DNA from: Bacteroidota bacterium
GTDB taxonomy: Bacteria > Bacteroidota > Ignavibacteria > UBA10030
Direction: 5' to 3'
Assembly: GCA_035574455.1 (NCBI GenBank)
Contig: DATLYT010000110.1
Span: forward strand, 8,882-72,881
Length of the DNA stretch: 64,000 nt
The first letter of the stretch is position 1, and every line of letters starts with the position of its first letter. The notes beneath the pieces were generated by a model. That model did no database searches. It saw only the letters and a list, made by a program, of their open reading frames with translations, and was not told the DNA's origin. Positions 8,001 through 35,100 of the stretch are shown piece after piece. A program made the translations under genes and the position numbers.

Positions 8001-11000
8001 CTACTTCACCAAGATCATCTTCTTCGATGCTGCGTATGTCCATCGATCATCGGCTACTGCATCGATGCGATAGAAGTAGACACCGCTGGAGACTGCATGG
8101 CCTGCTGCATTCCTGCCATCCCAGTTGACCCGGTAGACGCCCGCCGGCTGTTCAGAAGCGACGAGGGTCTGAATCTGCTGTCCCAACATATCGTACACTC
8201 GCAGCGTGACACGACTCTGGACGGGCAGATGGTACTCCAGCGTCGTGCTAGGGTTGAACGGATTGGGATAATTCTGCAGCAGCTCGAACGTCGTCGGAAT
8301 CTCTCTCCGTTGCTCCACGTTGACGACCACCGGCCCTGTTTGCGACGTGAGGTTCGTTTCATTCAACAAGAACCTGGTGAAGGTCAAGGAGAAGGCCGGC
8401 GCCTGTTGCTTCACCTTGAATACGATGGTCACCAAATCGCCTTCGTTGCTTGTCGGGACGGTTCCCGCCAAAGCGACTCGTGCAACGAGGGACTGGAAGT
8501 TATGGAAAAGCATCATGCTATCCGACAAGACAGTTTTCCGAACCTCAACAGGAGCGAGCTGTGTAGAGTCATAGGCAAGATGGATTTCCGTCGAATAGAT
8601 CGGTATGGACCCATCCACGCGAAGTGTCAGATGGAGTTCATCAGCGACAGGCCGTGCGGTTCGGAATTCAAACGCCGCGGTTGTCTCGTTGCCGACAAGT
8701 TTTCCAGCCGGGAAGCCCGTAATTAAGCCAACCACGTAGCGCAGAATCAACGAGGCATCGAACGCCGTGACCGTGCCATCGCCACTAACATCGGCGGCGA
8801 TCGTCTGTGACGGGCTGAGGGTATACAAACTAACGACGGACTGCAAGACCAGGGCGGCATCGAACGCCGAGATCGTCCCGTTCTGGCTGACATCCCCAAT
8901 GAGAATACCCGAACGCGCGGTCAGGAATGGGCGGTACGTCACGGCACCGGGATTCAAGAGAATGCGATTCCCTGTGCCGGTCAGATTTTGGTCTGTACCC
9001 TGATTCACAAACGGACCGCTTGCAGCGCCCCAATAGTTGTTGATCGCGTCAATGGTAATGTTGGTGTTATTGTTGAACCCATAGGTACTGTTGTCCCGAA
9101 TGTTGTTGAACCGCAGGACGGGATTCGACGACCCCTGGGTCAGAATCCCTGTGGGGTTGTTGTGAATCTCATTCGCAGAGAGAGCCGGGGATGAGTTCAG
9201 GAGGTACAGACCGTAGTTACTGCTGAATGAAGAGCCACTAGAATCGATCGGCGCCGTCGTACCGTCGAGGCGGATATTGCCGTTGCCCGTACGACCGCCG
9301 TAGCGCACGATCGTGTTAAAGATGTGGGTTGCATTGTTCGAAGCGCCGTTGAGATAGAGCATATCCCAATCCGCCGGGCCCGGAACGGTGGCGTTGGCGT
9401 CCCCGTTCGTATCTCCACCAAACGAATCATCTTTCCACGACGTGAAAACAATCTTGCTTGCGGAGGTCCCTTCGGATTTGAGAACACCATCCACGCGGAA
9501 TCTGCCGTCCCCACCTGCTGCGCCTCCTACATATTCCCGTGGGAATTTGATCACGGTCCCCGGCGCAATCGTGAGGGTCGCTCCATTGGGGACAAAGAGA
9601 CCCCCACGCACAGCCACGACCTTGGATGTATACCCCGGCGGGAAGGACGCACCCAACAGCCCGAACACCGTTTCCTCCGTCACGAGTACATCGTTGTACG
9701 TATTCCCCGAGATCAAGACATTCTGGTACACGTTGCCGTTTGCCGTGCCCGTGCCTGCTAACGAGATTTGCCCCACCGCGCCGATCGCATACCGGTTTCC
9801 TGTAATCGAATCATCCACCACATAGGCACGGGAGGAGAAAAGTCCGGTTATCACATTATTGCGGATCTTCGTATCGGCGACAATCAACAGCGTATCGATG
9901 GCGTCGTTCCGGGCGACCAGATAGAGACCGTGACCGTTATTGTTACTCACGAGATTGCTAATGACAGAGAAGGGAACCGTATTGTTTTCGACGTAGACCC
10001 CCGTTCCGTTATTCCCCACGATTTCGCAATTCGTCATGACTGCGATCTTTGCCTGGCCTTCTACCCAGAGCCCGTACGCCCCCGCGGTTCTGCCGTTGTA
10101 GAGGAGCTTGGAATGCCGCAGCGTGATGTTCGTGCTGACACGGTCGTACGCGCGAATTCCATGCGTATTACTGCTGTCAACCGTTGTGCTGTCAATCGTG
10201 ATCGGCGTATTGTCGATGACAATCCCAGCCGCCATCGAGCGACGGACGAGGTTGTTCGAGAAAACCATCGAACCGTGGTTCCGGTAGATGTAGACGGTCT
10301 GTACATTATCACGACCCCCATACCGAAATTGACAATGACGAATGCGTGAATTTTCGCTTCCGTCCCGGAACGCGAGGTAATACCAGTCTCCCGGCGCCGG
10401 CGGAACGTAATCGTTCACCGCTGTCGTCTTCCCACCTGCCGTACTATCCCGCCACGATGTAAAGATGATCGGGTTGCCAGGAGTCCCTTCTGCTTTGAGC
10501 GTACCGTAGAGATCGAACGTCTGCCAATTGTTCGTTGGAATCTGCTGGAACTTCATAATTACACCGGGCTCTATGACCAGTGTCGTACCGTTGCTGACCT
10601 GAATATCATAGATGGCAACGTACGTTCTCGAAGTGATCGCGGCAGGGAATCGTACGGAAAGAGTATCAGAGATCGGTCCATCCCAAACAGCAATTGCATT
10701 GTTGTAGGTGTTGCCGCTGATAACGTTTCCATCGTTTCCGTTGTTGTCGGTATAGATATTTCCCAGACGGCGCCAAACCGCAAGCGGATAGCGATTGCGT
10801 TGGATGGCGTTGTCGATGAAGCGCGCGCGGCTGCTGAGAACTCCTTCTCCGGAATGGTCGGAGACAGTATTGCCGATGTAGTTGAGGTCGGTTGCAATGA
10901 CCGTGGAGTTGTTATAGATGCCCCCGTACCCGTTGTTCGTGATCGTGTTACCCTGAAAGACCTGGGGAATGGTACCATTATCCACGCCAACCCCCCATCC

Positions 11001-13655
11001 GTCGTTGTACTGCACGAAACAGTTCGACACTTCGCGGAAGGCAGAGTTATTTACTGCCCGGAGTCCTTCATTTCCATTATATCGGATGAAGCTGTTCCTC
11101 GCTGTCACGTCCGATGGGCGATTCCCTTCGACATAGATGCCGTACGAAGCGTTGCTATCGATGGTGCATCCTTCAAAAGTGACTTTGCTATCCCCGATAC
11201 GGATCCCCATGCTGCTTGACCGCCGTGACACAATATTCCGGATCGGTGTCACTAAATCGACATTGTTCTCAATCCAGAGATTCCCAACATTATCCATCCC
11301 TCCGTACTTGAAGAGAACATTACTCAGTACCGAGTTATTCACGGTGTTGATGCGCAACCGAATGTAGCGCCAGTCGTTGGGCGCTGGAGCAGAATTATCC
11401 GTTGCTGCGTTGGTTTTTCCGCCATAAGAGGCGTCACGGTAGGAGGTGAAGACGATGGGATTAGCGCTTGTGGCGTTTGCAATTAACGTCCCTTCCACGC
11501 GCCAGTACTGACCCGGGTTCATCTTGATGATGACGCCTGGTTCAATAACCAGTGTCTCCCCTGGTCGAATACCCCAACCCGCGCTGTTGTCAATCATGAC
11601 ATAGGTCTTCGAGGTCATGCCCGCCGGTAAAGTGGCTTTCAATGTGTCCGAGAAGCTTTCTTCAAAGCGATCGATTCTCAGCGCAAGAGCGTTATTAAAG
11701 GTATTTCCCGATATGGTGTTGCCGCTATACGTGCTGCCGACACGGCCGAACAGAGCGATAGGGTACCGATTGCCCTGAAGGACGTTATTTCTGATGACCG
11801 CCTTCGAGGTCACTATGCCTTCTTGGCCGTTGTTGAGAATCGTGTCTCCTTCAATCGTCACGATGTTATCTACATTATAGCACCAGAGACCATATGCTCC
11901 GTTATTGGCAATGCGGTTGTAGGCGAAGGTCTGAGCGCCGGTCCCGTACCACAAATAGAGTCCACCGTTGATGTTGTTCGATACGTTAGAGCTATCCATC
12001 GAAACAAGCGTTGCACTCGGTGAACCTGCGTCGGCAACAATGCCATAACTATTACCCGTAAAGGTCGATTTTCGGACGGTGAAGCGGCAACTGCCGCTGT
12101 TCGCATAAATTCCATACCGTCCATTATTGACAGCCGAGATTGCATAAAAAGTAGGGCTTGCAGATTGGATTAAAATGCCGTCGAGACTGTTTGATCCAAA
12201 CGAACTGTTCGACACAGAGGCATTCGCGCCATTATAGAAAAACGCTCCGTAGTATGAACTTTGTGTACTCGTCAGGTTAGTAATGGTCGGCGTTGAGCTT
12301 TCCACGCGAACATTGCCATTTCCGCTTGATCCGCCAAACCGGAAGAGACAGTGACTGAGCGCGCTGATGTTATTTCCACCACCCCGGAGCCAGACCATAT
12401 CCCAATTCCCACGTGCAGGCAGCGTTGCACCAGCATCGCCATTCGAATCTCCACCATACGGATCGTCCTTCTCAGAAGTAAACACGATGAGGTTGGCGGA
12501 GGTACCGTTGGCAATAATCGTCCCGTCTACCGTGAGCCGCGCGGTTGCAGCAAACTTGACGATGACACCGGGGAGGATGATCAAGGTATCACCGCTTGTA
12601 ACGTTAACGCTATTCTTCACCCAGAAAACACCACTGCTCCAGGTCGTTGTCGTTGTGATGTTGGCCGTAATGTTCGTAACAGGCAGCGGCGTCGCGAGGA
12701 TAACCCATGGTTGAAAATCGACATTATCGCTTACGCGATCGCCAAGTCCTGTCGGATTCGTGCCGGGATGATACGGACCCAGTTCGCTCCCCCAATAATT
12801 GTTCCGAGCCAAGACCGTAGTTGTGGTACTCGTATTGAGAAATCCCCAGGTGACGTTGTTGCGGATCGTGTCCTGTGAAATCGTCGGTTGTGTAGAACCC
12901 ACCTGTGTGAACTGAATACCGATGTTGTTATAGCGAATATTATTGCGCTGAACGGTCGGAGAAGCGCTGCCGTCGATGAAGATACCGATACCGTTCGAAT
13001 CGATTCGACTGTTCGTAATGGTCGGGGAAGAGTTAATCGGGACGCGTACTCCGCCTGCGGTATTCTGGATAACGGTACACGAATCGACGATGAAGTTCGA
13101 GAGGAGGTCACTGTACACGCCATAGCCGCTGTTTTGTTGAAAGGTCGAATTGGAAATACGAGGCGATGAGGCACGTGTATTAACGCCATGGCCGGCATTC
13201 GAGCGAAAGAGCACGTAGGAGAGGCCGATATTCGGGGCGCCTGTTTTATAGAACATCCCCGCGGCGTTCGTGCCGCCCCCTGCATACTCCACGACGCAAT
13301 GCTGGAGGGCGGAGTTGACGTCGGCGGTACTTTGAAGCTCAACGCCATTCCAGCTCCCCGGCGTAGGAGAACCAAGGTTGGAGGTGAAGACGATAGGGTT
13401 TCCGGATGTGCCCAGGGCAACGATTTTTCCTGCAATCACAAGCATCTTCCCCGCATTGAACTTCACGGTCGTGCCGGGCTGGATCGTGAGGGTTCGCCCA
13501 GAGGGGACGTACACCGAATCCGCGATGACGGTACCCGCGGTCCACGTCGTATCCGATGCAATGGCGCCTGAGATGGGTGTTTGCCCAAAACTCCAGAGTG
13601 GGATGAGTGTGGAGATAGTGAACCCCAGTGCTCCCTTCAAGAGTCTGTTATGCAT
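8001..13655 (-). CDS. Giant (1884 aa) right-handed parallel beta-helix repeat protein with five tandem ~300-aa modules, a C-terminal dockerin-like double repeat, a cohesin-like module and a T9SS C-terminal sorting domain.
   Basis: N-terminal signal peptide MHNRLLKGALGFTISTLIPLWSFGQ. Recurrent PbH1-like turns (NNxGxGIxxxxS). Five copies of the module ..TLxIxPGxxIKF....GxLxAxGTSxNPIVFTSxxDxxxGGxTNxxxxxxPxPxDWxxIxL. Dockerin-like loops DVSQNGTISAFD and DVSGDGTVTAFD (about 8727-8894). Cohesin-like region about 8306-8654. C-terminus NYPNPFNPST..GVYFYRI. Confidence 0.85.
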   Translation of the reverse strand: MHNRLLKGALGFTISTLIPLWSFGQTPISGAIASDTTWTAGTVIADSVYVPSGRTLTIQPGTTVKFNAGKMLVIAGKIVALGTSGNPIVFTSNLGSPTPGSWNGVELQSTADVNSALQHCVVEYAGGGTNAAGMFYKTGAPNIGLSYVLFRSNAGHGVNTRASSPRISNSTFQQNSGYGVYSDLLSNFIVDSCTVIQNTAGGVRVPINSSPTITNSRIDSNGIGIFIDGSASPTVQRNNIRYNNIGIQFTQVGSTQPTISQDTIRNNVTWGFLNTSTTTTVLARNNYWGSELGPYHPGTNPTGLGDRVSDNVDFQPWVILATPLPVTNITANITTTTTWSSGVFWVKNSVNVTSGDTLIILPGVIVKFAATARLTVDGTIIANGTSANLIVFTSEKDDPYGGDSNGDAGATLPARGNWDMVWLRGGGNNISALSHCLFRFGGSSGNGNVRVESSTPTITNLTSTQSSYYGAFFYNGANASVSNSSFGSNSLDGILIQSASPTFYAISAVNNGRYGIYANSGSCRFTVRKSTFTGNSYGIVADAGSPSATLVSMDSSNVSNNINGGLYLWYGTGAQTFAYNRIANNGAYGLWCYNVDNIVTIEGDTILNNGQEGIVTSKAVIRNNVLQGNRYPIALFGRVGSTYSGNTISGNTFNNALALRIDRFEESFSDTLKATLPAGMTSKTYVMIDNSAGWGIRPGETLVIEPGVIIKMNPGQYWRVEGTLIANATSANPIVFTSYRDASYGGKTNAATDNSAPAPNDWRYIRLRINTVNNSVLSNVLFKYGGMDNVGNLWIENNVDLVTPIRNIVSRRSSSMGIRIGDSKVTFEGCTIDSNASYGIYVEGNRPSDVTARNSFIRYNGNEGLRAVNNSAFREVSNCFVQYNDGWGVGVDNGTIPQVFQGNTITNNGYGGIYNNSTVIATDLNYIGNTVSDHSGEGVLSSRARFIDNAIQRNRYPLAVWRRLGNIYTDNNGNDGNVISGNTYNNAIAVWDGPISDTLSVRFPAAITSRTYVAIYDIQVSNGTTLVIEPGVIMKFQQIPTNNWQTFDLYGTLKAEGTPGNPIIFTSWRDSTAGGKTTAVNDYVPPAPGDWYYLAFRDGSENSRIRHCQFRYGGRDNVQTVYIYRNHGSMVFSNNLVRRSMAAGIVIDNTPITIDSTTVDSSNTHGIRAYDRVSTNITLRHSKLLYNGRTAGAYGLWVEGQAKIAVMTNCEIVGNNGTGVYVENNTVPFSVISNLVSNNNGHGLYLVARNDAIDTLLIVADTKIRNNVITGLFSSRAYVVDDSITGNRYAIGAVGQISLAGTGTANGNVYQNVLISGNTYNDVLVTEETVFGLLGASFPPGYTSKVVAVRGGLFVPNGATLTIAPGTVIKFPREYVGGAAGGDGRFRVDGVLKSEGTSASKIVFTSWKDDSFGGDTNGDANATVPGPADWDMLYLNGASNNATHIFNTIVRYGGRTGNGNIRLDGTTAPIDSSGSSFSSNYGLYLLNSSPALSANEIHNNPTGILTQGSSNPVLRFNNIRDNSTYGFNNNTNITIDAINNYWGAASGPFVNQGTDQNLTGTGNRILLNPGAVTYRPFLTARSGILIGDVSQNGTISAFDAALVLQSVVSLYTLSPSQTIAADVSGDGTVTAFDASLILRYVVGLITGFPAGKLVGNETTAAFEFRTARPVADELHLTLRVDGSIPIYSTEIHLAYDSTQLAPVEVRKTVLSDSMMLFHNFQSLVARVALAGTVPTSNEGDLVTIVFKVKQQAPAFSLTFTRFLLNETNLTSQTGPVVVNVEQRREIPTTFELLQNYPNPFNPSTTLEYHLPVQSRVTLRVYDMLGQQIQTLVASEQPAGVYRVNWDGRNAAGHAVSSGVYFYRIDAVADDRWTYAASKKMILVK

Positions 13656-15021: not shown

Positions 15022-15061
15022 GAAAATAAAAAATCTCTGCCTCGAATACTCGAGACAGAGA
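15022..15061 (-). terminator. Rho-independent terminator downstream of the 15100..15567 gene.
   Basis: Minus strand reads ATCTCTGtctcgagtattcgaggCAGAGAT followed by TTTTTTTATTTTC. Confidence 0.5.
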
Positions 15062-15099
15062 TTGTGAACATCATCATCGTCGGAAAGGCCAAGACCGAA

Positions 15100-15567
15100 T
15101 CAACGATTATTCTTCTTTTCAGCCTGAGCTGCTTTCTTTGCCGCCTTCTTCGCGCTCTTCGCAGCGCTCTTTGCTTCCTTTTCAGCGGCTTTCTCTGCAG
15201 CCTGCTGAGCCTGCTGTTCTTTCTTCTCCGCCTGCTCTAACTTCTTTGCGGCCTGTTCGGTCTTGCCTTTCTCCAGCATTTTCTCAGCTTGCTCACGTTT
15301 CTTCTCCGCTTGCTCCATCTTCTTTTCTGCTTGCTTCTCGTGAGCCTGCTGTTTGGCTTCCTGCTTCGCTTCTTTCTTCTCCATGTTTTGCGCTTTCATT
15401 TCCATACCCTTCTGAGCATTGGGAGAAGGCGTGGCAGGTACAGCTTTCTGCTGTTCAGCCTCCTTCGGCGGAGTTGCCGGAGTCGCAGGCTGAGCTTTAC
15501 TCTTGTCTTGGGCGAGCGCAAGACTCGAGATTAGCAATGCAATCACCAACATCACGAGTTTCTTCAT
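15100..15567 (-). CDS. Secreted low-complexity K/A/E/Q-rich coiled-coil protein (hypothetical periplasmic protein).
   Basis: Signal peptide MKKLVMLVIALLISSLALAQ directly after an AGGAGGG ribosome-binding site. A Pro/Thr-rich linker, then about 100 aa of EKKxEQAEKK / KKAAKKAA repeats. The ATG at 15567 is preferred over the track start at 15609. Confidence 0.55.
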   Translation of the reverse strand: MKKLVMLVIALLISSLALAQDKSKAQPATPATPPKEAEQQKAVPATPSPNAQKGMEMKAQNMEKKEAKQEAKQQAHEKQAEKKMEQAEKKREQAEKMLEKGKTEQAAKKLEQAEKKEQQAQQAAEKAAEKEAKSAAKSAKKAAKKAAQAEKKNNR

Positions 15568-15697: not shown

Positions 15698-16213
15698 TTA
15701 CTTTGCAGCGGCCACGACCTTCTCTTGTCGAGCAGTAAACGCCGTGAGTTCAAACAACCCGAACATCGCCGCGGTAAACGCCAGGTCTCCCACCACGCTG
15801 TTTTGGAAGAACGGAATGGCTGCGACGTAACAGGCCACGAGGCCCTCCCACGTTTTTGGGTACATCGTTCCGTTCAGCCAGACGGCGAAATTCGTTACGA
15901 TAAAAAAGAGCACTGAACTGGCGAGCGCGGCGCCCACAATCGGCAACGGACGCTTGTGCGAGCGAAGCCAAAGCCCGATGAAGCCTGTTGCGATGAAGCA
16001 TCCGTAGACCCACACCATGCCATCATGGAAGCCGATGAAGTAGTCGCTGATGAGCATTGCGGCAAGCGGGATGATGAATGCATAACGCTTGTCCAGATAG
16101 ACCGCGGAACTCAATGCAATCGCCGCGATGGGGGTAAAGTTCGGCGGATGTGGCAACAACCGCGCCAACGCAGCGGCGAGAACCAATCCAAATCCAAAGA
16201 TGAGATGTTTCAT
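15698..16213 (-). CDS. Small polytopic inner-membrane protein, DUF6580-like / ECF-transporter S-component-like; last gene of the riboswitch-controlled operon.
   Basis: MKHLIFGFGLVLAAALARLLPHPPNFTPIAAIAL... with about five predicted TM helices. AGGAGG ribosome-binding site 7 nt upstream of the ATG at 16213. The start overlaps the upstream gene's stop by 4 nt (16210..16213). Family assignment is from memory of the RLLPHPxNFTPI motif and is not verified. Confidence 0.6.
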   Translation of the reverse strand: MKHLIFGFGLVLAAALARLLPHPPNFTPIAAIALSSAVYLDKRYAFIIPLAAMLISDYFIGFHDGMVWVYGCFIATGFIGLWLRSHKRPLPIVGAALASSVLFFIVTNFAVWLNGTMYPKTWEGLVACYVAAIPFFQNSVVGDLAFTAAMFGLFELTAFTARQEKVVAAAK

Positions 16214-16902
16214 ACGACAACCTCCTGTGTGATAGGTGATGATTGAAGAACAGACCACTCTTGAATATCCAGGCCAACGTATGAATCGTACGCCTGTTTC
16301 TTCCAACGCTCGACCTGCAATTGCCCTTTCATCGCCGGGCTCTGAACAACCAGCGTGTGGTATTCTCCATGCTCTCCGAGAAGGTCAAGCCCCTTCGACC
16401 GGAGTTCATTGTGAAATTCATGATCCACCGCTTGCCCCAACCATCGTTCATGAAGCTTGCCGGTTTCCACCGCGACAATCAAACTTCGGAACTGATGCTG
16501 CTTCTCCAGAATCACTTCCGTCGACCATCCCCACAGCGGAAAAACCGGCGTTACGCCACACTCGTTGCAGACCCGTTCATTCCATACGCGGTGTTCCTCT
16601 AAATGGATATCGCCGAAGATTGCATAGTTGATTTTCTGAGGAGCAAGACTCTGCATGATGGCGCGCAGCCGCTGTTCATATTCCTCGCGGCCCACATACA
16701 CCTCCTGCAAGTACACTCCTGCAAGCCGAGCCTGGTCGCGAAGGACCCGCGGGGGTAGTCGATGCGAGAGCGAGGAACGCGTACGGGCATCAAAGAACGT
16801 CAACGCGAGGGCGATGTCGTACCCTTGAGACTGCGCTTCCATGAACGCCAGGTGGCTGTCTTTTCCACCGCTCCAAAGACAAAATGCTCGTTTGGCTTCC
16901 AT
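16210..16902 (-). CDS. PP-loop ATP pyrophosphatase of the Dph6 / DUF71 (MJ0570-like, diphthine-ammonia ligase-related) family.
   Basis: N-terminal PP-loop CLWSGGKDS and the family motif GEHGEYHTLVVQSP (compare EGGEYET in this family). The ATG lies 3 nt after the stop of the upstream TonB-receptor gene, suggesting translational coupling. Confidence 0.8.
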   Translation of the reverse strand: MEAKRAFCLWSGGKDSHLAFMEAQSQGYDIALALTFFDARTRSSLSHRLPPRVLRDQARLAGVYLQEVYVGREEYEQRLRAIMQSLAPQKINYAIFGDIHLEEHRVWNERVCNECGVTPVFPLWGWSTEVILEKQHQFRSLIVAVETGKLHERWLGQAVDHEFHNELRSKGLDLLGEHGEYHTLVVQSPAMKGQLQVERWKKQAYDSYVGLDIQEWSVLQSSPITQEVVV

Positions 16903-16905
16903 ATG

Positions 16906-19101
16906 TTAAAATGTATGATTCAACAGGTACCGAGCACTCACAAAGAATCCCCGCCCGCGTGTCGTAAAGCCGTTGATCTCAAGATACTTGGTATTGAAGA
17001 CATTTTCCACGCGTGCGGAAATCGACAGCTGGTCGCTCACCGCATAGTTCTGCACGAAGTCAACCACCGTGTAGGCATCGACAGGACGCGTTCCGAGCGC
17101 ACCGTAGGGACCGCGCTGGGCATCGTAGTACACATCCGGCCTTGCACCAGCATGGCGTAGGGCGAGTCGGGACATGAACTCCTCCGTTGGATGAAAGGTC
17201 ACAACCAGATTAGCGGTATTCGGCCTTCGGACGAGCTCCGCAGTTTCAACCGTACGAGTTAAGAACGCGCCGTTACTATAGAGCTGCACATGATGGCCTT
17301 GAGTCTTTTGCCGATCCAGGTTGCTCGGGTCATACCGGAGCTTTCCGGACACGAGGCTGAAGTTGCTGGAAAGCGACCAGACGTCGTTCAACCTTGCGTG
17401 AAGCGTGAATTCAAACCCGTCCGTTGTTTGCCTGCCGAGGTTGAGGTAGGTGTCGCCGCGGAAGTCATTCCGGCGAAAATCCGAGCCGAGCATCTCGATG
17501 GGAATATTTTGATTCCAGAGGTACACGTATTCGATGCTGTTGTTCACAACGGTGTGGAAGTAACTGGTGGTCATGCCAACGTCTTCACTCAGATCGATTT
17601 TCATTCCCAGTTCATACGACGAAGAAGATTCAGGCTGTAAGGCGTTGTTCCCGCGGGTGATGCCGGAAGAGAAATCCCGGTCGGGCGCGTAGAGTTGATA
17701 CAGCGATGGAGCACTGAAACCCATCGAGTACGACGCATACACCAGTCCGTGTTCGCTGACGCGGTAAGACGGATTCAGCTCCACACTGCGGTGATAGCCG
17801 AACGCATTGTGATGGGTCAGTCGAGCTCCAAGGCCGAGATTCCATTTCTGGAGTGCAGGATGGAACAACCCTCCCTTCATATCAAACCGTCCGAAAAGAT
17901 GTTTGACGGTCGCTTTCAGTCCCAGCGTATCGAGGTTTGTGGAAAATTCGAAGGGTCCGAAGATCGAGTTGGAGAAGAAATACGACTGCGAGCTCATGGT
18001 CTCCGCGTAGACTCCGCCGCCGAGAACGACCTCGAAGCGCGGATCCTGAACCACCGCCTGCACCTCGTGGGTGCTCATCGTGCCGGACCAGGCGTTTCGA
18101 GAATAGGTTTGGTCAGTTTTCCCGCTCGCGTCGACGACCGAAGAATCATCAACCGCCGTCCGCTTCATCTCCGAATATCCCCCGAGGAACTTCAAACGAA
18201 ATCGGTCGCTGAACCGATAGGAGGCACCGTAGGTGTACAGATAGCGAGAAAAATCCAACTTGGCGTTGTCATCGTCCCGGTAAGCCGCTTTGTCGATATC
18301 CTTCTCCTGGCGATGCCGTTTGAAGGCAACGTATGCATCCACCTCACGGTTGACAAATCCAACTTTACCGTAAAGATCCAGAGCATCCATTCCGTCCTTG
18401 TCGCGATTCTTGAAGGCAGACATCCGGCTCACGGTGTCGACGGTCGCATCGAGGCCGCGAACCCGATTGTTCACCGCTTCGAAGTTCGTGTAGAACCCGG
18501 ATGCTGTCGTCGCGTTGACAAACAGCTGCTGGCCAAAAAGCGATGTGCCGGATCCAAACGTTCCCGTCCAGATGTCTGCGTCGGCGTGAAGCCCCGGCGT
18601 CCATTGCTTGCGGGTGATCAGGTTGACCACACCGCCGACTGCTGACGAGCCGTAGAGTGTGCTGTGCGATCCGCGAACGATCTCGATGCGGTCAAAGCCA
18701 AACGGCAACAGCTCCGAGAGATCAAGGGCATTGTTCACACCCGACGGGTCGGTGATCCGCACATCATCGACAACGACCGCCGTTTGGTGACTCCCTGCCC
18801 CGCGCAGAAAGAGACTCTGTTGCGCGCCAAAGTTCTGGCCTGTTCCGACAATATACAAACCTTCTTTTTGAGAAATCGCTTCTGCTACGCTGTGGTACAC
18901 CGAACGCTTGACCTCATCGCCAAACAACACGCTCACACTGCGGCCTACCGTGCGCGGATCTCGTTCCGTGCGCGTCGCGGTAACAACGACTTCGGGCAAC
19001 CGGTAGGTTCTTACCGTATCTGGTGATACTGCTGGTTCCTGGGCACGTCCCTCAACCAGGATGAGGGCGCTGACAACCACGAGAAGTACAATGCTCTTCA
19101 T
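16906..19101 (-). CDS. btuB: TonB-dependent outer-membrane receptor, BtuB-like (putative corrinoid transporter).
   Basis: Signal peptide MKSIVLLVVVSALILVEGRAQ after a GGAGG ribosome-binding site. TonB box PEVVVTATR, plug and 22-strand barrel features, C-terminal ...NHTF. Preceded by a cobalamin riboswitch. The ATG at 19101 is preferred over the track start at 19326, which reads through the leader. Confidence 0.8.
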   Translation of the reverse strand: MKSIVLLVVVSALILVEGRAQEPAVSPDTVRTYRLPEVVVTATRTERDPRTVGRSVSVLFGDEVKRSVYHSVAEAISQKEGLYIVGTGQNFGAQQSLFLRGAGSHQTAVVVDDVRITDPSGVNNALDLSELLPFGFDRIEIVRGSHSTLYGSSAVGGVVNLITRKQWTPGLHADADIWTGTFGSGTSLFGQQLFVNATTASGFYTNFEAVNNRVRGLDATVDTVSRMSAFKNRDKDGMDALDLYGKVGFVNREVDAYVAFKRHRQEKDIDKAAYRDDDNAKLDFSRYLYTYGASYRFSDRFRLKFLGGYSEMKRTAVDDSSVVDASGKTDQTYSRNAWSGTMSTHEVQAVVQDPRFEVVLGGGVYAETMSSQSYFFSNSIFGPFEFSTNLDTLGLKATVKHLFGRFDMKGGLFHPALQKWNLGLGARLTHHNAFGYHRSVELNPSYRVSEHGLVYASYSMGFSAPSLYQLYAPDRDFSSGITRGNNALQPESSSSYELGMKIDLSEDVGMTTSYFHTVVNNSIEYVYLWNQNIPIEMLGSDFRRNDFRGDTYLNLGRQTTDGFEFTLHARLNDVWSLSSNFSLVSGKLRYDPSNLDRQKTQGHHVQLYSNGAFLTRTVETAELVRRPNTANLVVTFHPTEEFMSRLALRHAGARPDVYYDAQRGPYGALGTRPVDAYTVVDFVQNYAVSDQLSISARVENVFNTKYLEINGFTTRGRGFFVSARYLLNHTF

Positions 19102-19162
19102 ACAACCTCCGATAAATGATGGGTTGAACATTGGTACTTCGCGTGAACGATGGTTTGACTCC

Positions 19163-19200
19163 ACTATGCTCTCCAACAAAAAGCCCCAACCTTCCGAAGA
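19163..19200 (-). terminator. Intrinsic terminator (riboswitch expression platform) about 60 nt upstream of the btuB-like start codon.
   Basis: Minus strand reads GCCCCAATCTTC-TTCG-GAAGGTTGGGGC followed by TTTTTGTTGG: a 12-bp stem with a UUCG-like tetraloop and a U tract. Confidence 0.65.
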
Positions 19201-19289
19201 AGATTGGGGCAAGACTCGTGCAGAATGAGAATCAGCCACCTTCCCGCGAAGGCTTTCTGAAGATACATCGGCATGATTGAGCCGCCGAT

Positions 19290-19445
19290 GTGTTCGCGTC
19301 TGGCAGGTCTCCTGGCTCATGAGCATGACTGCAGTCGTACTCCCTTCCCATCCTTCGTGTACCTCCGGATAGTGGTTCTTCCGACTTTCTCATTTACAGT
19401 TGCGGGGCAGCTTCCGGTTTTCCGTCTGAAACGGATCACGGAATT
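19290..19445 (-). promoter_or_regulatory. Cobalamin (B12) riboswitch aptamer.
   Basis: Minus strand contains ..CCGGAAGCTGCCCCGCAACTGTAAATGAG.., then ..GGGAAGGGAG.., then the B12 box GAGCCAGGAGACCTGCC. These match conserved Rfam RF00174 core elements. It lies upstream of a TonB receptor with an intrinsic terminator between them. Confidence 0.8.
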
Positions 19446-19523
19446 CCCTTTTCATCCTCATCCCGATCTTAAGATCGGGAGAAGACACCAAACGCAGATG
19501 AAAAAGAACAAATGACCAACGCC

Positions 19524-19552
19524 AATATAGAGAACTTCTCTACCACAGTCAA
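19524..19552 (-). promoter_or_regulatory. Candidate sigma-70-type promoter for the riboswitch-btuB operon.
   Basis: Minus strand reads TTGACT-17 nt-TATATT about 80 nt upstream of the aptamer. It is not known whether this lineage uses this consensus. Confidence 0.3.
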
Positions 19553-19563
19553 GCGGTTACGAA

Positions 19564-32158: not shown

Positions 32159-35100
32159 CTACATTTCGAGTTTTAACCCGACGATGATCTGTCGCGGGGG
32201 ACCGAAGAGGTCACCACCAGCCTGTTGACCAAGACCGCCACCTGCACCAATGCTGGTGTAGGCATACCGGTTGTTCAGGTTAATGGCGCGATAGAATGCC
32301 TCGTAGTTCGGGATTTCCCGGTACGGGGTGGCAAACGGACTTTTCAGCCAGCCATCGTCGTACGGTGTTCCGGTCGTCGGATACACATTGAGAATCTGTT
32401 TCGTGTTGAACAAGTTCAGCACGCGAGCATAGAGCTCCACATTGCCAAAGTCCATGAAGAAGACCTTGCTCACGTTCAGGTCAACGTTGAACACCCACGG
32501 TGTCGTGGATGCGTTAATCGGCTCCACGGGGTTACGGCCGCGAGAGTCTTGCAACGCTCGAACGCCGATGAACCAGGGGCTGGCCTGACCCAGGTTGTGT
32601 GGCTCACGAATCTTCGTGTAGTTATGCCCGCTGTTGAAGGTGAGCAGGAAGTTCGCTCCCATCCCCTCTAAAATTGCTCCACCGTCGCCCTTGCCAAAGC
32701 GGTAGTCCACAAAGATCGTCCCTTTGTGCGTCTGGTTGTAATCCAAGGGGTTGATGAAGTTCGGGAAGCGTGCACTGGCTTCGTCCGTCACGGCGTTCTG
32801 TGAAGAACGGGAAGTCGAACCTGTTCCGCGTGCGTCGGAAAGCGTGTAGTTCACGCGCGCCGCCAAACGATTCGTGCGGCGGAGCTCAAGCGTCAACTCC
32901 AGCCCCTTGACGGTACCGAAATCTTCGTTAAAGAATCCGACGGAGATCGGGAGACCCTGGGAGTTGAAAATTCTCCGAAGTTGGAGCTGGTCTTTCAGGT
33001 CTTTATAGAAACCGGAAACGGTGAGGGCAAAGTTATCCGTCAAGGTCTGTCGGATACCCATCTCGTACTGCGTATTGCGCTCCGGTTTTGCTGTGAACGG
33101 AACGGCGGAAGCACCGAGGTTGTAGGGCGTCCGTGTTGACGGGTTCAAGCGTTGGCTCAACGTCACGTTGTCCATAATCAGCTGGTCCATGCTGGGAAGC
33201 TGCGCGTACTTGCCGTATTGAGCGTAGAACACGGTTTTGTCAGTCACCGGGAAGGCAAAGTTCAACCGCGGCAGCAGATAGCTGAACGGCTCGGACTCTG
33301 TGATCTTATCTTCCTCGATGATACCCAACGCAGCATCAACCGGTGGTTCATTATAATCCGGCTGGCCGGTAATCGGGTTGATCGTCATCGGAACGGTCGG
33401 AATCTTCGGTGAGAAGTATTCAAACCGGGCACCGATGTTGAGAATCAAGTCGCGGTACTCGAACTTGTTCTGAATGTATGCAGCGGCAAACAGAGGCGTC
33501 CGCGGTCCATCAAGCGTTGCACTCCGGCCACCACCCAAATCGTAGGTCTGACCATCCGACTCATTGCCATCGAGATCGTAACCGATGTTGGTAATGGTCG
33601 CACGCTGCAGCCGCACACGGCGCTCATATTCGCTCGCAAACGTACGGTCAATCACACCATCGCGGTTCGGGTCGAGGAAGATCCAGTAAGTCTGCGCATT
33701 CACACTAAATGTGCGGTACGTCCATGAATCGATACTGCCGCCCGCCTTCAACTCCCATCGAGGATTGATCTGCGACGTAAAGTCTAACGTCACGCCAAAT
33801 TGTCGAGTATTGCTTTTACCGTAGCCTGTATTGGGAGAGAAAGGATGGGGGAAACCTGCTGAACTGGGGAACTGGAAGATCGTGCTATAGCCGAATGGGC
33901 CTTCGTAGCGATTACGCCATTCGTTCGTAGGATATCCTTTGGCAGCGTACGCCACGCTGTCGGAATAGGATTTCCAGTCGTCCTGGAAGTCCTGGTCAAA
34001 ACTCCGGCCGAAGCGGTTCTGATAGGAAAGACCGACTTCGTAAAACGTGGTTGGACCGAGAATGTGCGTTAAGCGGACGTTTCCAAAGACCGTCTCGACT
34101 TCACTGTGCGATAATGTCCGCGGATCTCGGAAGTAGTTGACTAAATTTCCTGGCCACGAGGTGCCGTTGGGCGAACGAAAATACGAATAGCTACCACTGA
34201 ATTTCACCTTCAACGGGAGTTGGGACATCTGGTTCAGATCGAACAAGAGTGTTCCGATACCCGAGTTCGTGTATGTCCAGTTGTTGTACAGGTAGTTGCG
34301 TTTATACTCAATAGTGCCGTCATAGTTGCCGTCGCCGTCGGCATCCCGCGGGAGGAACAGACCTTCCGGCCGGTTGCCCAGAGCATCCGTCTTGAGACCC
34401 TCAAACTTGAACGGTTCGATGAACCTCCTGTCGGATTGGCGCGTGTAATTGTGCTGACCGGTCAGGAAGAAGCGGATACCGCTGGTCAGCGGGCCGCCGA
34501 CCGTCAACACGGCGTTGCGGTAGCCAAATGCCGTCGTGCCGAGGAACGTGTCGCCGGGCTTGGCAAAATCATCCGTCTGATAATCTAATGTCCATTTTAG
34601 TTCAGGACCCCCAGTGCGGAGGGATGTACGGACGACACCGGATGCCGCACCGCCAAACTCTGCCGTGTAACCGCCGGACTGGAGTTGGAATTCCTCAATC
34701 GCTTCTTGAATGACCCCAACGTTTTGAGAATTGGTGATGGGATTCGTCACGTTTGCACCATCGATAAAGTACGCCACCTCACCCGCTCGACCGCCACGGA
34801 CATACAGCCGTCCGTCACGCTCCACAACACCCGCTTCGAGAGCAAGGAAGTTGCCCAAACCGCGCAGCGGTAAGTTTCTGATATTCTCTTGGGTGTTGAT
34901 ACGGACGGTGTTGGTGGTATTGCGTTGAATGAGGGGACGCTCGGCAACGACTTCGATTTCCCGTGTCTGGATAGCGGTACTGGAGAGCTGGAAATCCTGG
35001 GTCGTTGTCAGGTTTGCACTGACGCGGACGTTGGCGACCGTAACCGCCGAGTAGCCGATATACGATGCCTTCACTGAATAGGCACCGGGCGGCACACTCA

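Follow-up and report, generated by a model that had tools for sequence, protein, structure and literature searches.

The minus strand of a 64-kb stretch of Bacteroidota contig DATLYT010000110.1 (the whole stretch is referred to below as the window) carries a cobalamin riboswitch followed by three genes on the same strand, which encode a TonB-dependent receptor, a PP-loop enzyme of the DUF71 family and a small membrane protein of the DUF6580 family (Table 1). With moderate confidence, these are read as a B12-repressed operon in which corrinoids would be taken up through the outer membrane by the BtuB-like receptor, imported through the inner membrane by DUF6580 and processed in an ATP-dependent manner by an enzyme of the DUF71-B12 type. 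The pairing of riboswitch and receptor is ordinary. The assignment of DUF6580 as a B12-linked, BtuM-like carrier appears to be new and is well supported by comparative genomics and by a predicted structure; no description of DUF6580 and no link to B12 was found in the literature searched, which excludes most subscription journals.

Covariance-model scanning of the window against Rfam gave a single match, the cobalamin riboswitch aptamer RF00174, with a score of 94.0 bits (E = 4.4e-22; gathering score 31.5). A riboswitch of this kind had been placed in the minus-strand leader of the receptor gene by an earlier reading of the letters made with no database searches (the sequence-only reading), and the B12 box and core elements quoted there (GAGCCAGGAGACCTGCC, GGGAAGGGAG, CCCGCAACTGTAA) were all located in the leader. 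The alignment additionally shows the GGGAA and GCCACU elements; the score, the B12 box and the conserved core together place the leader in RF00174. The promoter-like TTGACT-17-TATATT sequence precedes the start of the aptamer by ~17 nt and is a pattern match only; the region contains two such sites, and shuffled sequences gave an expectation of 2.2. Between aptamer and receptor, the 12-bp terminator stem described by the sequence-only reading was recovered (19210-19183, seven G-C pairs, arms GCCCCAATCTTC-TTCG-GAAGGTTGGGGC with TTCG as the loop, then TTTTTGTT as the T tract); its distance from the start codon, given there as about 60 nt, had to be corrected to ~82 nt for the stem end and ~73 nt for the T tract. 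When the leader is folded, the hairpin appears in both the centroid and the minimum-free-energy structure, the latter of which resolved no antiterminator. It is the likely OFF-switch platform of the aptamer: at high intracellular cobamide concentration the aptamer would bind its ligand and the terminator would halt transcription, and at low concentration a single mRNA for the receptor, DUF71 and DUF6580 would be made.

Table 1. Positions of the operon and flanking features in the window, and of BtuF-like genes at other DUF6580 loci
Feature	Position	Strand	Basis or description
Sigma-70-like promoter TTGACT-17-TATATT	19552-19524	minus	consensus scan, 10/12 matches
Cobalamin riboswitch aptamer RF00174	19285-19507	minus	cmscan, full model 1-189
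B12 box	19302-19318 (GCCAGGAGACCTGCC at 19302-19316)	minus	direct sequence reading
Intrinsic-terminator-like expression platform	19174-19210	minus	terminator scan
BtuB-like TonB-dependent outer-membrane receptor	16906-19101	minus	731 amino acids, signal peptide, Plug and barrel
PP-loop ATP pyrophosphatase, DUF71-B12 subfamily	16210-16902	minus	230 amino acids, no signal peptide, PF01902
DUF6580 membrane protein	15698-16213	minus	171 amino acids, six helices (model), PF20221
Secreted Lys/Glu/Ala-rich low-complexity protein	15100-15567	minus	155 amino acids, operon membership uncertain
Strong terminator-like hairpin	15032-15063	minus	14 pairs and T run, terminator scan
BtuF-like Peripla_BP_2 beside DUF6580, no BtuC/BtuD	L008 6992-7990; L033 6889-7917; L039 5247-6308; L043 4235-5155; L089 2880-3797		

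The stretch from the riboswitch to DUF6580 is supported as one B12-riboswitch-controlled transcription unit. The gene coordinates bear out the tight packing that had been read from the letters, with a gap of 3 nt between the receptor stop and the DUF71 start and an overlap of 4 nt (ATGA) between DUF71 and DUF6580. That reading was also right that neither gene behind the receptor is one of the classical btuFCD/btuG set; no BtuFCD, BtuG, CobA/PduO, CbiB, CobUST or cbiZ-like genes were found anywhere within the window. As in the Btu systems of E. coli and Bacteroides, a riboswitch-controlled TonB-dependent receptor heads the operon; in those systems the inner-membrane step belongs to the ATP-binding cassette (ABC) importer BtuFCD, whereas in the window operon DUF6580 stands where such a step would be expected. 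In reviews up to 2026, BtuFCD is the only inner-membrane step given for Bacteroides (PMC13616437), and the literature searched describes ECF-CbrT, BacA and BtuM as further characterized B12 importers (PMC10960864, PMC6072759). A protein identical to one of the window carries the NCBI tag VNL36_05300.

The receptor starts at ATG 19101 and not at 19326, the start of the longest open reading frame; the gene calls on three identical contigs agree on this. Both the Plug domain (PF07715, 69 bits) and the TonB_dep_Rec_b-barrel domain (PF00593, 117.5 bits) were found, and the TonB box PEVVVTATR, already recognized from the letters, lies behind the signal peptide, so that the architecture is that of BtuB (plug, 22-strand barrel and N-terminal TonB box). 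As the first gene past the aptamer it is also, like btuB, placed under B12-riboswitch control. Its best NCBIfam matches are two BtuB models, TIGR01779 (TonB-B12; 168 bits, cutoff 599.7) and NF007926 (144 bits, cutoff 836), and with both scores far under the cutoffs its similarity to BtuB is below equivalog level. Full-length orthologues with 47-56% identity are present in four riboswitch-controlled DUF6580 loci (L004, L008, L009 and L011) and a truncated one in L015. The receptor would move corrinoids over the outer membrane. A second TonB-dependent-receptor-like match is located at ~32828-33130 (minus strand) of the window.

DUF6580, which carries RLLPHPPNFTPI, matched PF20221 with 180.9 bits, in agreement with the identity proposed by the sequence-only reading; the five transmembrane helices counted there become six in the predicted model, which has S-component topology. 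The best structural match of the model was the cobalamin transporter BtuM, followed by S-components of energy-coupling factor (ECF) transporters, so that the six-helix fold common to these two groups is predicted for DUF6580 and its description as S-component-like stands. The NCBI name of the protein is just 'putative transport protein', and the family comprises 4,620 clusters at 50% identity (E up to 1e-10). In an alignment of 81 sequences, R18, P21, H22, N25, P49, D57, F103, T107, N108, W112, Y118, G124, P134 and F135 are invariant. Most of them would lie in loop 1 and in the outer halves of helices 3, 5 and 6, as placed from positive-inside topology and the secondary structure of the model; this is the region in which S-components bind their substrate. 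DUF6580 would take the corrinoid through the inner membrane and would probably act alone, with no ATPase of its own; service of an S-component fold in B12 import is likewise known from ECF-CbrT.

The closest known counterpart, BtuM of Thiobacillus denitrificans (PDB entries 6FFV/8OVV), is a solitary S-component-like cobalamin transporter. Its gene is found together with btuB and the adenosyltransferase gene btuR, the product of which is presumed to retain the vitamin in the cell by trapping it (PMC6072759). DUF6580 follows the same genomic logic and belongs to a different Pfam family. BtuM has 131 homologues, mostly in alpha-, beta- and gamma-proteobacteria (PMC6072759), in contrast to the ~4,600 clusters of DUF6580 with metagenome-assembled genome (MAG) labels of Bacteroidota, Ignavibacteria, Patescibacteria, Nanoarchaeia, Planctomycetota and others.

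The genomic context of DUF6580 was surveyed by scanning one genome per GTDB species, which gave 588 confirmed relatives, and the best 80 loci (16 kb each) were kept. Their labels include Ignavibacteria, Bacteroidota, many Patescibacteria, Proteobacteria, Planctomycetota and Acidobacteria, together with Marinimicrobia, Omnitrophota, Leptospira and one Nanoarchaeia MAG. Riboswitches were located by Rfam scans and a strict B12-box search; all 12 re-tested matches of the latter were RF00174 (77-121 bits). A cobalamin-clan riboswitch (RF00174, RF01689 or RF01482) is present in 54 of the 80 loci: as the same-strand leader of the DUF6580 unit in 41, immediately downstream of DUF6580 at the head of the next btuB unit in seven, adjacent and divergent in four and elsewhere in the locus in two. 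Of more than 60 riboswitch matches, only five fall on the opposite strand, and a single one is farther than ~4.3 kb from DUF6580. The recurrence in riboswitch-led units that the sequence-only reading had named as a check was thus found for DUF6580, at the 41 loci, and for DUF71 homologues in L085, L089 and L090. Tandem cobalamin riboswitches ~0.8-0.9 kb apart were observed in L006, L011 (6682-6856 and 7594-7770), L031, L035 and L044, the first serving DUF6580 alone and the second the following unit, which is DUF71-TonB-dependent receptor in L011 and a TonB-dependent receptor, usually with BtuG, in the other four.

Neighbouring genes were identified by neighbour clustering and Pfam annotation. 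A TonB-dependent receptor occurs in 37 of the 80 loci and a BtuG-like propeller in 14; the latter, a homologue of the BtuG of the known Btu systems, matches PDB entry 8BLW and relatives, which are BtuBG structures (PMC10404256). DUF4430, a domain that occurs at the C-terminus of transcobalamin (PMC4350170), is encoded directly upstream in 14 loci. NrdR with a putative class II ribonucleotide reductase was found in 11 loci, a PduO-type adenosyltransferase directly downstream in nine, and DUF71 with the B12 motif in nine, bearing labels of at least six phyla, and also in L089. Co-localization as known for BtuM was seen for the receptor (37 loci) and the adenosyltransferase (nine loci), the absence of an ECF module being judged locally only. 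Where DUF71 is lacking, the position directly beside DUF6580 is often held by the PduO adenosyltransferase. This suggests a common theme, in which a carrier with no energy source of its own would work together with a cytoplasmic enzyme that consumes ATP and, by modifying the corrinoid, retains it.

Loci labelled Patescibacteria or Nanoarchaeia share a compact module (riboswitch, in some cases DUF4430, then DUF6580 and PduO) beside a TSCPD-containing ribonucleotide reductase, which from its Pfam domains is probably of the B12-dependent class II type. These lineages are presumed to be unable to make B12; if this holds and the reductase is B12-dependent, the module is sensible only if DUF6580 imports a complete corrinoid; the arrangement thus suggests uptake of complete corrinoid and not of a precursor. 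This bears on the alternative that DUF6580 takes up cobalt, a base for the lower ligand or, like CblT, alpha-ribazole, or is a membrane-bound protein for corrinoid processing or hand-over. Since a precursor would be of no use to such organisms, since their 16-kb loci hold DUF6580 with only the adenosyltransferase and the putative B12-dependent reductase and no biosynthetic or remodelling gene, and since the partners BtuB, BtuG, DUF4430 and BtuF are known or expected corrinoid binders, this alternative is considered quite improbable. The gene order NrdR, putative class II ribonucleotide reductase, DUF6580, PduO, otherwise Patescibacterial, was also observed in L020, L022 and L030 (with DUF4430 in addition in L020 and L030), which are labelled Gammaproteobacteria; the labels of these bins may be wrong and some MAG labels unreliable.

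The DUF71 protein matched PF01902 with 125 bits and carries the SGGKDS PP-loop (CLWSGGKDSHL) and the GEHGEYHT motif that the sequence-only reading had used to recognize it. It is homologous to the structures 3RJZ (PF0828; E = 6e-15) and 2D13 (PH1257). Among the 120 best homologues, E-x-G-E-[YF]-H-T is kept in 117 and the exact SGGKDS PP-loop in 94. The family (COG2102) was divided in 2012 into Dph6 and a bacterial and archaeal subgroup, 'DUF71-B12', which has the hallmark ENGE[F/Y]H with His in place of the catalytic Glu188 of Dph6 (de Crecy-Lagard et al., PMC3541065). Dph6 of archaea and eukaryotes is a homologous PP-loop ATP pyrophosphatase with Glu188, where the GEHGEYH motif of the window protein has His; the EGG[E/D]xE188 motif of Dph6 is absent and the score against the Dph6 equivalog TIGR03679 is 100.9, under the cutoff of 197.3. 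With PF01902 and an intact PP-loop, the His motif and a gene position in a riboswitch-led btuB operon, the window protein is, on its signature and context, a member of the published DUF71-B12 subgroup. Its PF01902 fold, SGGKDS, E-x-G-E-[FY]-H and B12 uptake operon are those of the subgroup; it differs in the second motif residue, which is Asn in the published hallmark and His here (as in 22 of the 120 homologues), and in its partner, which is BtuFCD or cbiB in the published cases and DUF6580 here. The sequence-only reading had called the module undescribed; the link of DUF71-B12 to B12, whose signature the window protein carries, has been published since 2012 (PMC3541065).

The B12 role of DUF71-B12 is itself a prediction of that study, in which 75 of 102 members lay beside B12 transporters and 18 of 102 beside cbiB, and in which a CbiZ-like function in pseudo-B12 salvage was cautiously suggested (PMC3541065). 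According to this proposal the enzyme would replace CbiZ and cleave or remodel adenosyl-pseudo-B12 or cobinamide to feed CbiB. Strict anti-correlation with CbiZ in bacteria, co-occurrence with CbiB and the change of Glu188 to His speak for it (PMC3541065), as does L085, where DUF71 stands between cbiB/cobD and btuF-cobA-btuCD-cobUTS. The PP-loop is nevertheless conserved although amide hydrolysis requires no ATP, cbiB and nucleotide-loop genes are lacking near the window operon and near most loci with DUF6580 and DUF71, and the literature search found no biochemical follow-up of the CbiZ-like proposal; it is regarded as rather unlikely. Adenylation followed by amidation is favoured because the PP-loop is strictly kept and amide hydrolysis has no need of ATP. 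The DUF71-B12 enzyme, translationally coupled to DUF6580, would thus use ATP to adenylate and then convert a corrinoid carboxylate, in the simplest case by amidation, and this modification would repair or remodel the imported corrinoid and trap it in the cell. Re-amidation of corrinoid carboxylates is plausible on this basis, since the ATP-binding PP-loop is conserved.

Seven other homologue loci that carry the His motif were sampled for DUF71 context. Three are riboswitch-led B12 clusters: L085 (BtuB, CbiB, CobD, Asn_synthase, DUF71, BtuF, CobA, BtuC, BtuD, CobU, CobT, CobS), L089 (DUF4430, then riboswitch, TonB-dependent receptor, BtuF, TP_methylase, DUF6580, Asn_synthase, DUF71) and L090 (riboswitch, DUF71, BtuF, CobA, BtuCD). 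In L085 (6096-7004) and L089 (5015-6007), two B12 clusters unrelated to each other, a protein with an Asn_synthase domain (PF00733, 302-330 amino acids), a second PP-loop enzyme of amidotransferase type, is encoded directly upstream of and overlapping DUF71; neither the window nor any of the 80 DUF6580 loci has such a partner. The TP_methylase gene of L089 (3782-4528), a member of the tetrapyrrole-methylase family PF00590, lies between BtuF and DUF6580 in the riboswitch-led uptake operon. In L084 (6756-8520) and L087 (5741-7566), the His-motif DUF71 has no B12 context and is accompanied by two common neighbours without Pfam matches (82-87 and 281-286 amino acids), which points to a second function, unrelated to B12, in some members of the DUF71 family. 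NCBI and JGI records give the name 'diphthine--ammonia ligase' to many DUF71 proteins of bacteria; this is systematic over-annotation, because bacteria have no diphthamide (PMC3541065) and the proteins lack the catalytic Glu of Dph6.

A continuous 685-amino-acid open reading frame (P0366; L091 6001-8058) holds DUF6580 and DUF71 in a single frame. It was not accepted as a Rosetta-stone fusion and was counted as adjacency, the Met of DUF71 being retained at the junction. Its C-terminal 240 amino acids resemble an out-of-frame high-GC read-through, it is one sequence from one contig with no riboswitch, and it may be an assembly or read-through artefact.

Taken beyond the window, the data lead to a proposal on which confidence is evenly divided, namely that DUF6580 (PF20221) is an unrecognized major family of prokaryotic B12 importers of the solitary S-component-like type. 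In many diderms that have no BtuFCD in the operon, Bacteroidota and Ignavibacteria among them, it would follow BtuB/BtuG as the importer of the inner membrane, and in genome-reduced Patescibacteria and DPANN archaea it would be the sole B12 route. Uptake would be driven by metabolic trapping in the cytoplasm, with PduO adenosylating the corrinoid or DUF71-B12 modifying it at the expense of ATP. The majority of microbes that depend on B12 have to take it up from outside. If the proposal is true, a family of ~4,600 clusters, riboswitch-linked from ultra-small Patescibacteria and Nanoarchaeia to Bacteroidota, fills a large part of the import gap; predictions of auxotrophy and cross-feeding from metagenomes would improve, and a second independent S-component fold would function without an ECF module. 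The pairing of DUF6580 with DUF71 also opens a concrete way to study an enzyme for which a role in B12 metabolism was predicted in 2012.

Several results weigh against this picture. Searches of DUF6580 against all PDB chains, with the single sequence (phmmer) and with a 63-sequence profile, returned nothing at E up to 10; the set included BtuM 8OVV, and no sequence relation to BtuM, CbrT or any other chain was seen, so that the relation of DUF6580 to BtuM is one of fold only. BtuM has an invariant cobalt-ligating Cys (Cys80, loop 3) to which DUF6580 has no counterpart. Its only conserved Cys, C128 in helix 6, is 81% conserved (Cys in 66, Ser in 12 and Ala in three of 81 sequences) and was rejected as a BtuM-like Co-S ligand on account of the 15 sequences with Ser or Ala. 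The receptor, already below the BtuB equivalog cutoffs, scored slightly higher against Cir (78 bits) than against E. coli BtuB (68 bits) in the PDB search, and its B12 specificity is therefore assigned mainly from the riboswitch. A BtuF-like binding protein adjoins DUF6580 in five loci (Table 1), which is unexpected for an S-component-like carrier and hints that the binding protein may hand B12 to such a carrier, an unusual arrangement. For DUF71-B12, the literature search turned up no experimental follow-up after 2012.

The sample carries weight here as well: the 80 loci were ranked by similarity through an Ignavibacteria-biased alignment and are not a random draw from the ~4,600 clusters. 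No riboswitch was detected in 26 of them; 11 of these keep B12-type neighbours, which together with the 54 riboswitch loci makes ~65 of 80 loci B12-linked and leaves ~15 (about a fifth) without any B12 context. Four of the seven sampled His-motif DUF71 loci are likewise without B12 context or riboswitch, so the His motif is no guarantee of a B12 link. These two groups of loci are what would be expected if DUF71 and DUF6580 were operon passengers with no role in corrinoid metabolism. Such a view is extremely hard to sustain, as the association with B12 recurs over many phylum labels, in varied gene orders and with RF00174, RF01689 and RF01482, and as several loci have a riboswitch dedicated to DUF6580 alone.

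A last difficulty concerns the energy source. Group II ECF S-components are often encoded apart from the ECF module, so that 16-kb loci are too narrow a view to decide whether DUF6580 works without an ATPase. DUF6580 could be a true ECF S-component, analogous to CbrT, which docks onto a shared EcfAA'T module from another part of the genome, import then being ATP-driven. None of the DUF6580 operons was found to contain an ABC ATPase or EcfT-like gene; ABC-ATPase-like open reading frames, detected with a crude regular expression (Walker-A and LSGGQ), are present in seven of the 80 loci and never in the operon. About half of the loci are from Bacteroidota, Ignavibacteria or Proteobacteria with BtuB, diderm bacteria in which ECF modules are presumably uncommon. 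ECF transporters occur predominantly in Gram-positive bacteria, and the adenosyltransferase beside DUF6580 mirrors the 'metabolic trapping' layout of BtuM and BtuR (PMC6072759). An ECF-dependent DUF6580 is accordingly held to be unlikely, and a solitary carrier is preferred.

Downstream of the operon, the gene of the 155-amino-acid secreted protein begins 130 nt past DUF6580. The terminator scan found no terminator in between, the hairpin at 15032-15063 being the first terminator-like element past the operon on the minus strand, and a TTGACT-like box at ~15640 is a possible promoter of this gene. The protein has no Pfam family and is not conserved beside DUF6580 at the other loci. Group I intron matches (RF00028, 83 bits) were noted in two Patescibacteria loci (L018 14215-14418 and L073 15763-15952). 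Further along the window, a beta-helix protein of 1884 amino acids that carries a Dockerin_1 domain is encoded at 8001-13655 of the minus strand (L001 5966-11620). The gene that follows it on this strand (L001 from 11688) codes for 1546 amino acids, in which several Cohesin, Big_2 and Por_Secre_tail domains were recognized; by their domains, the two proteins of this Ignavibacteria-like MAG form a cohesin-dockerin pair that bears type IX secretion tails.

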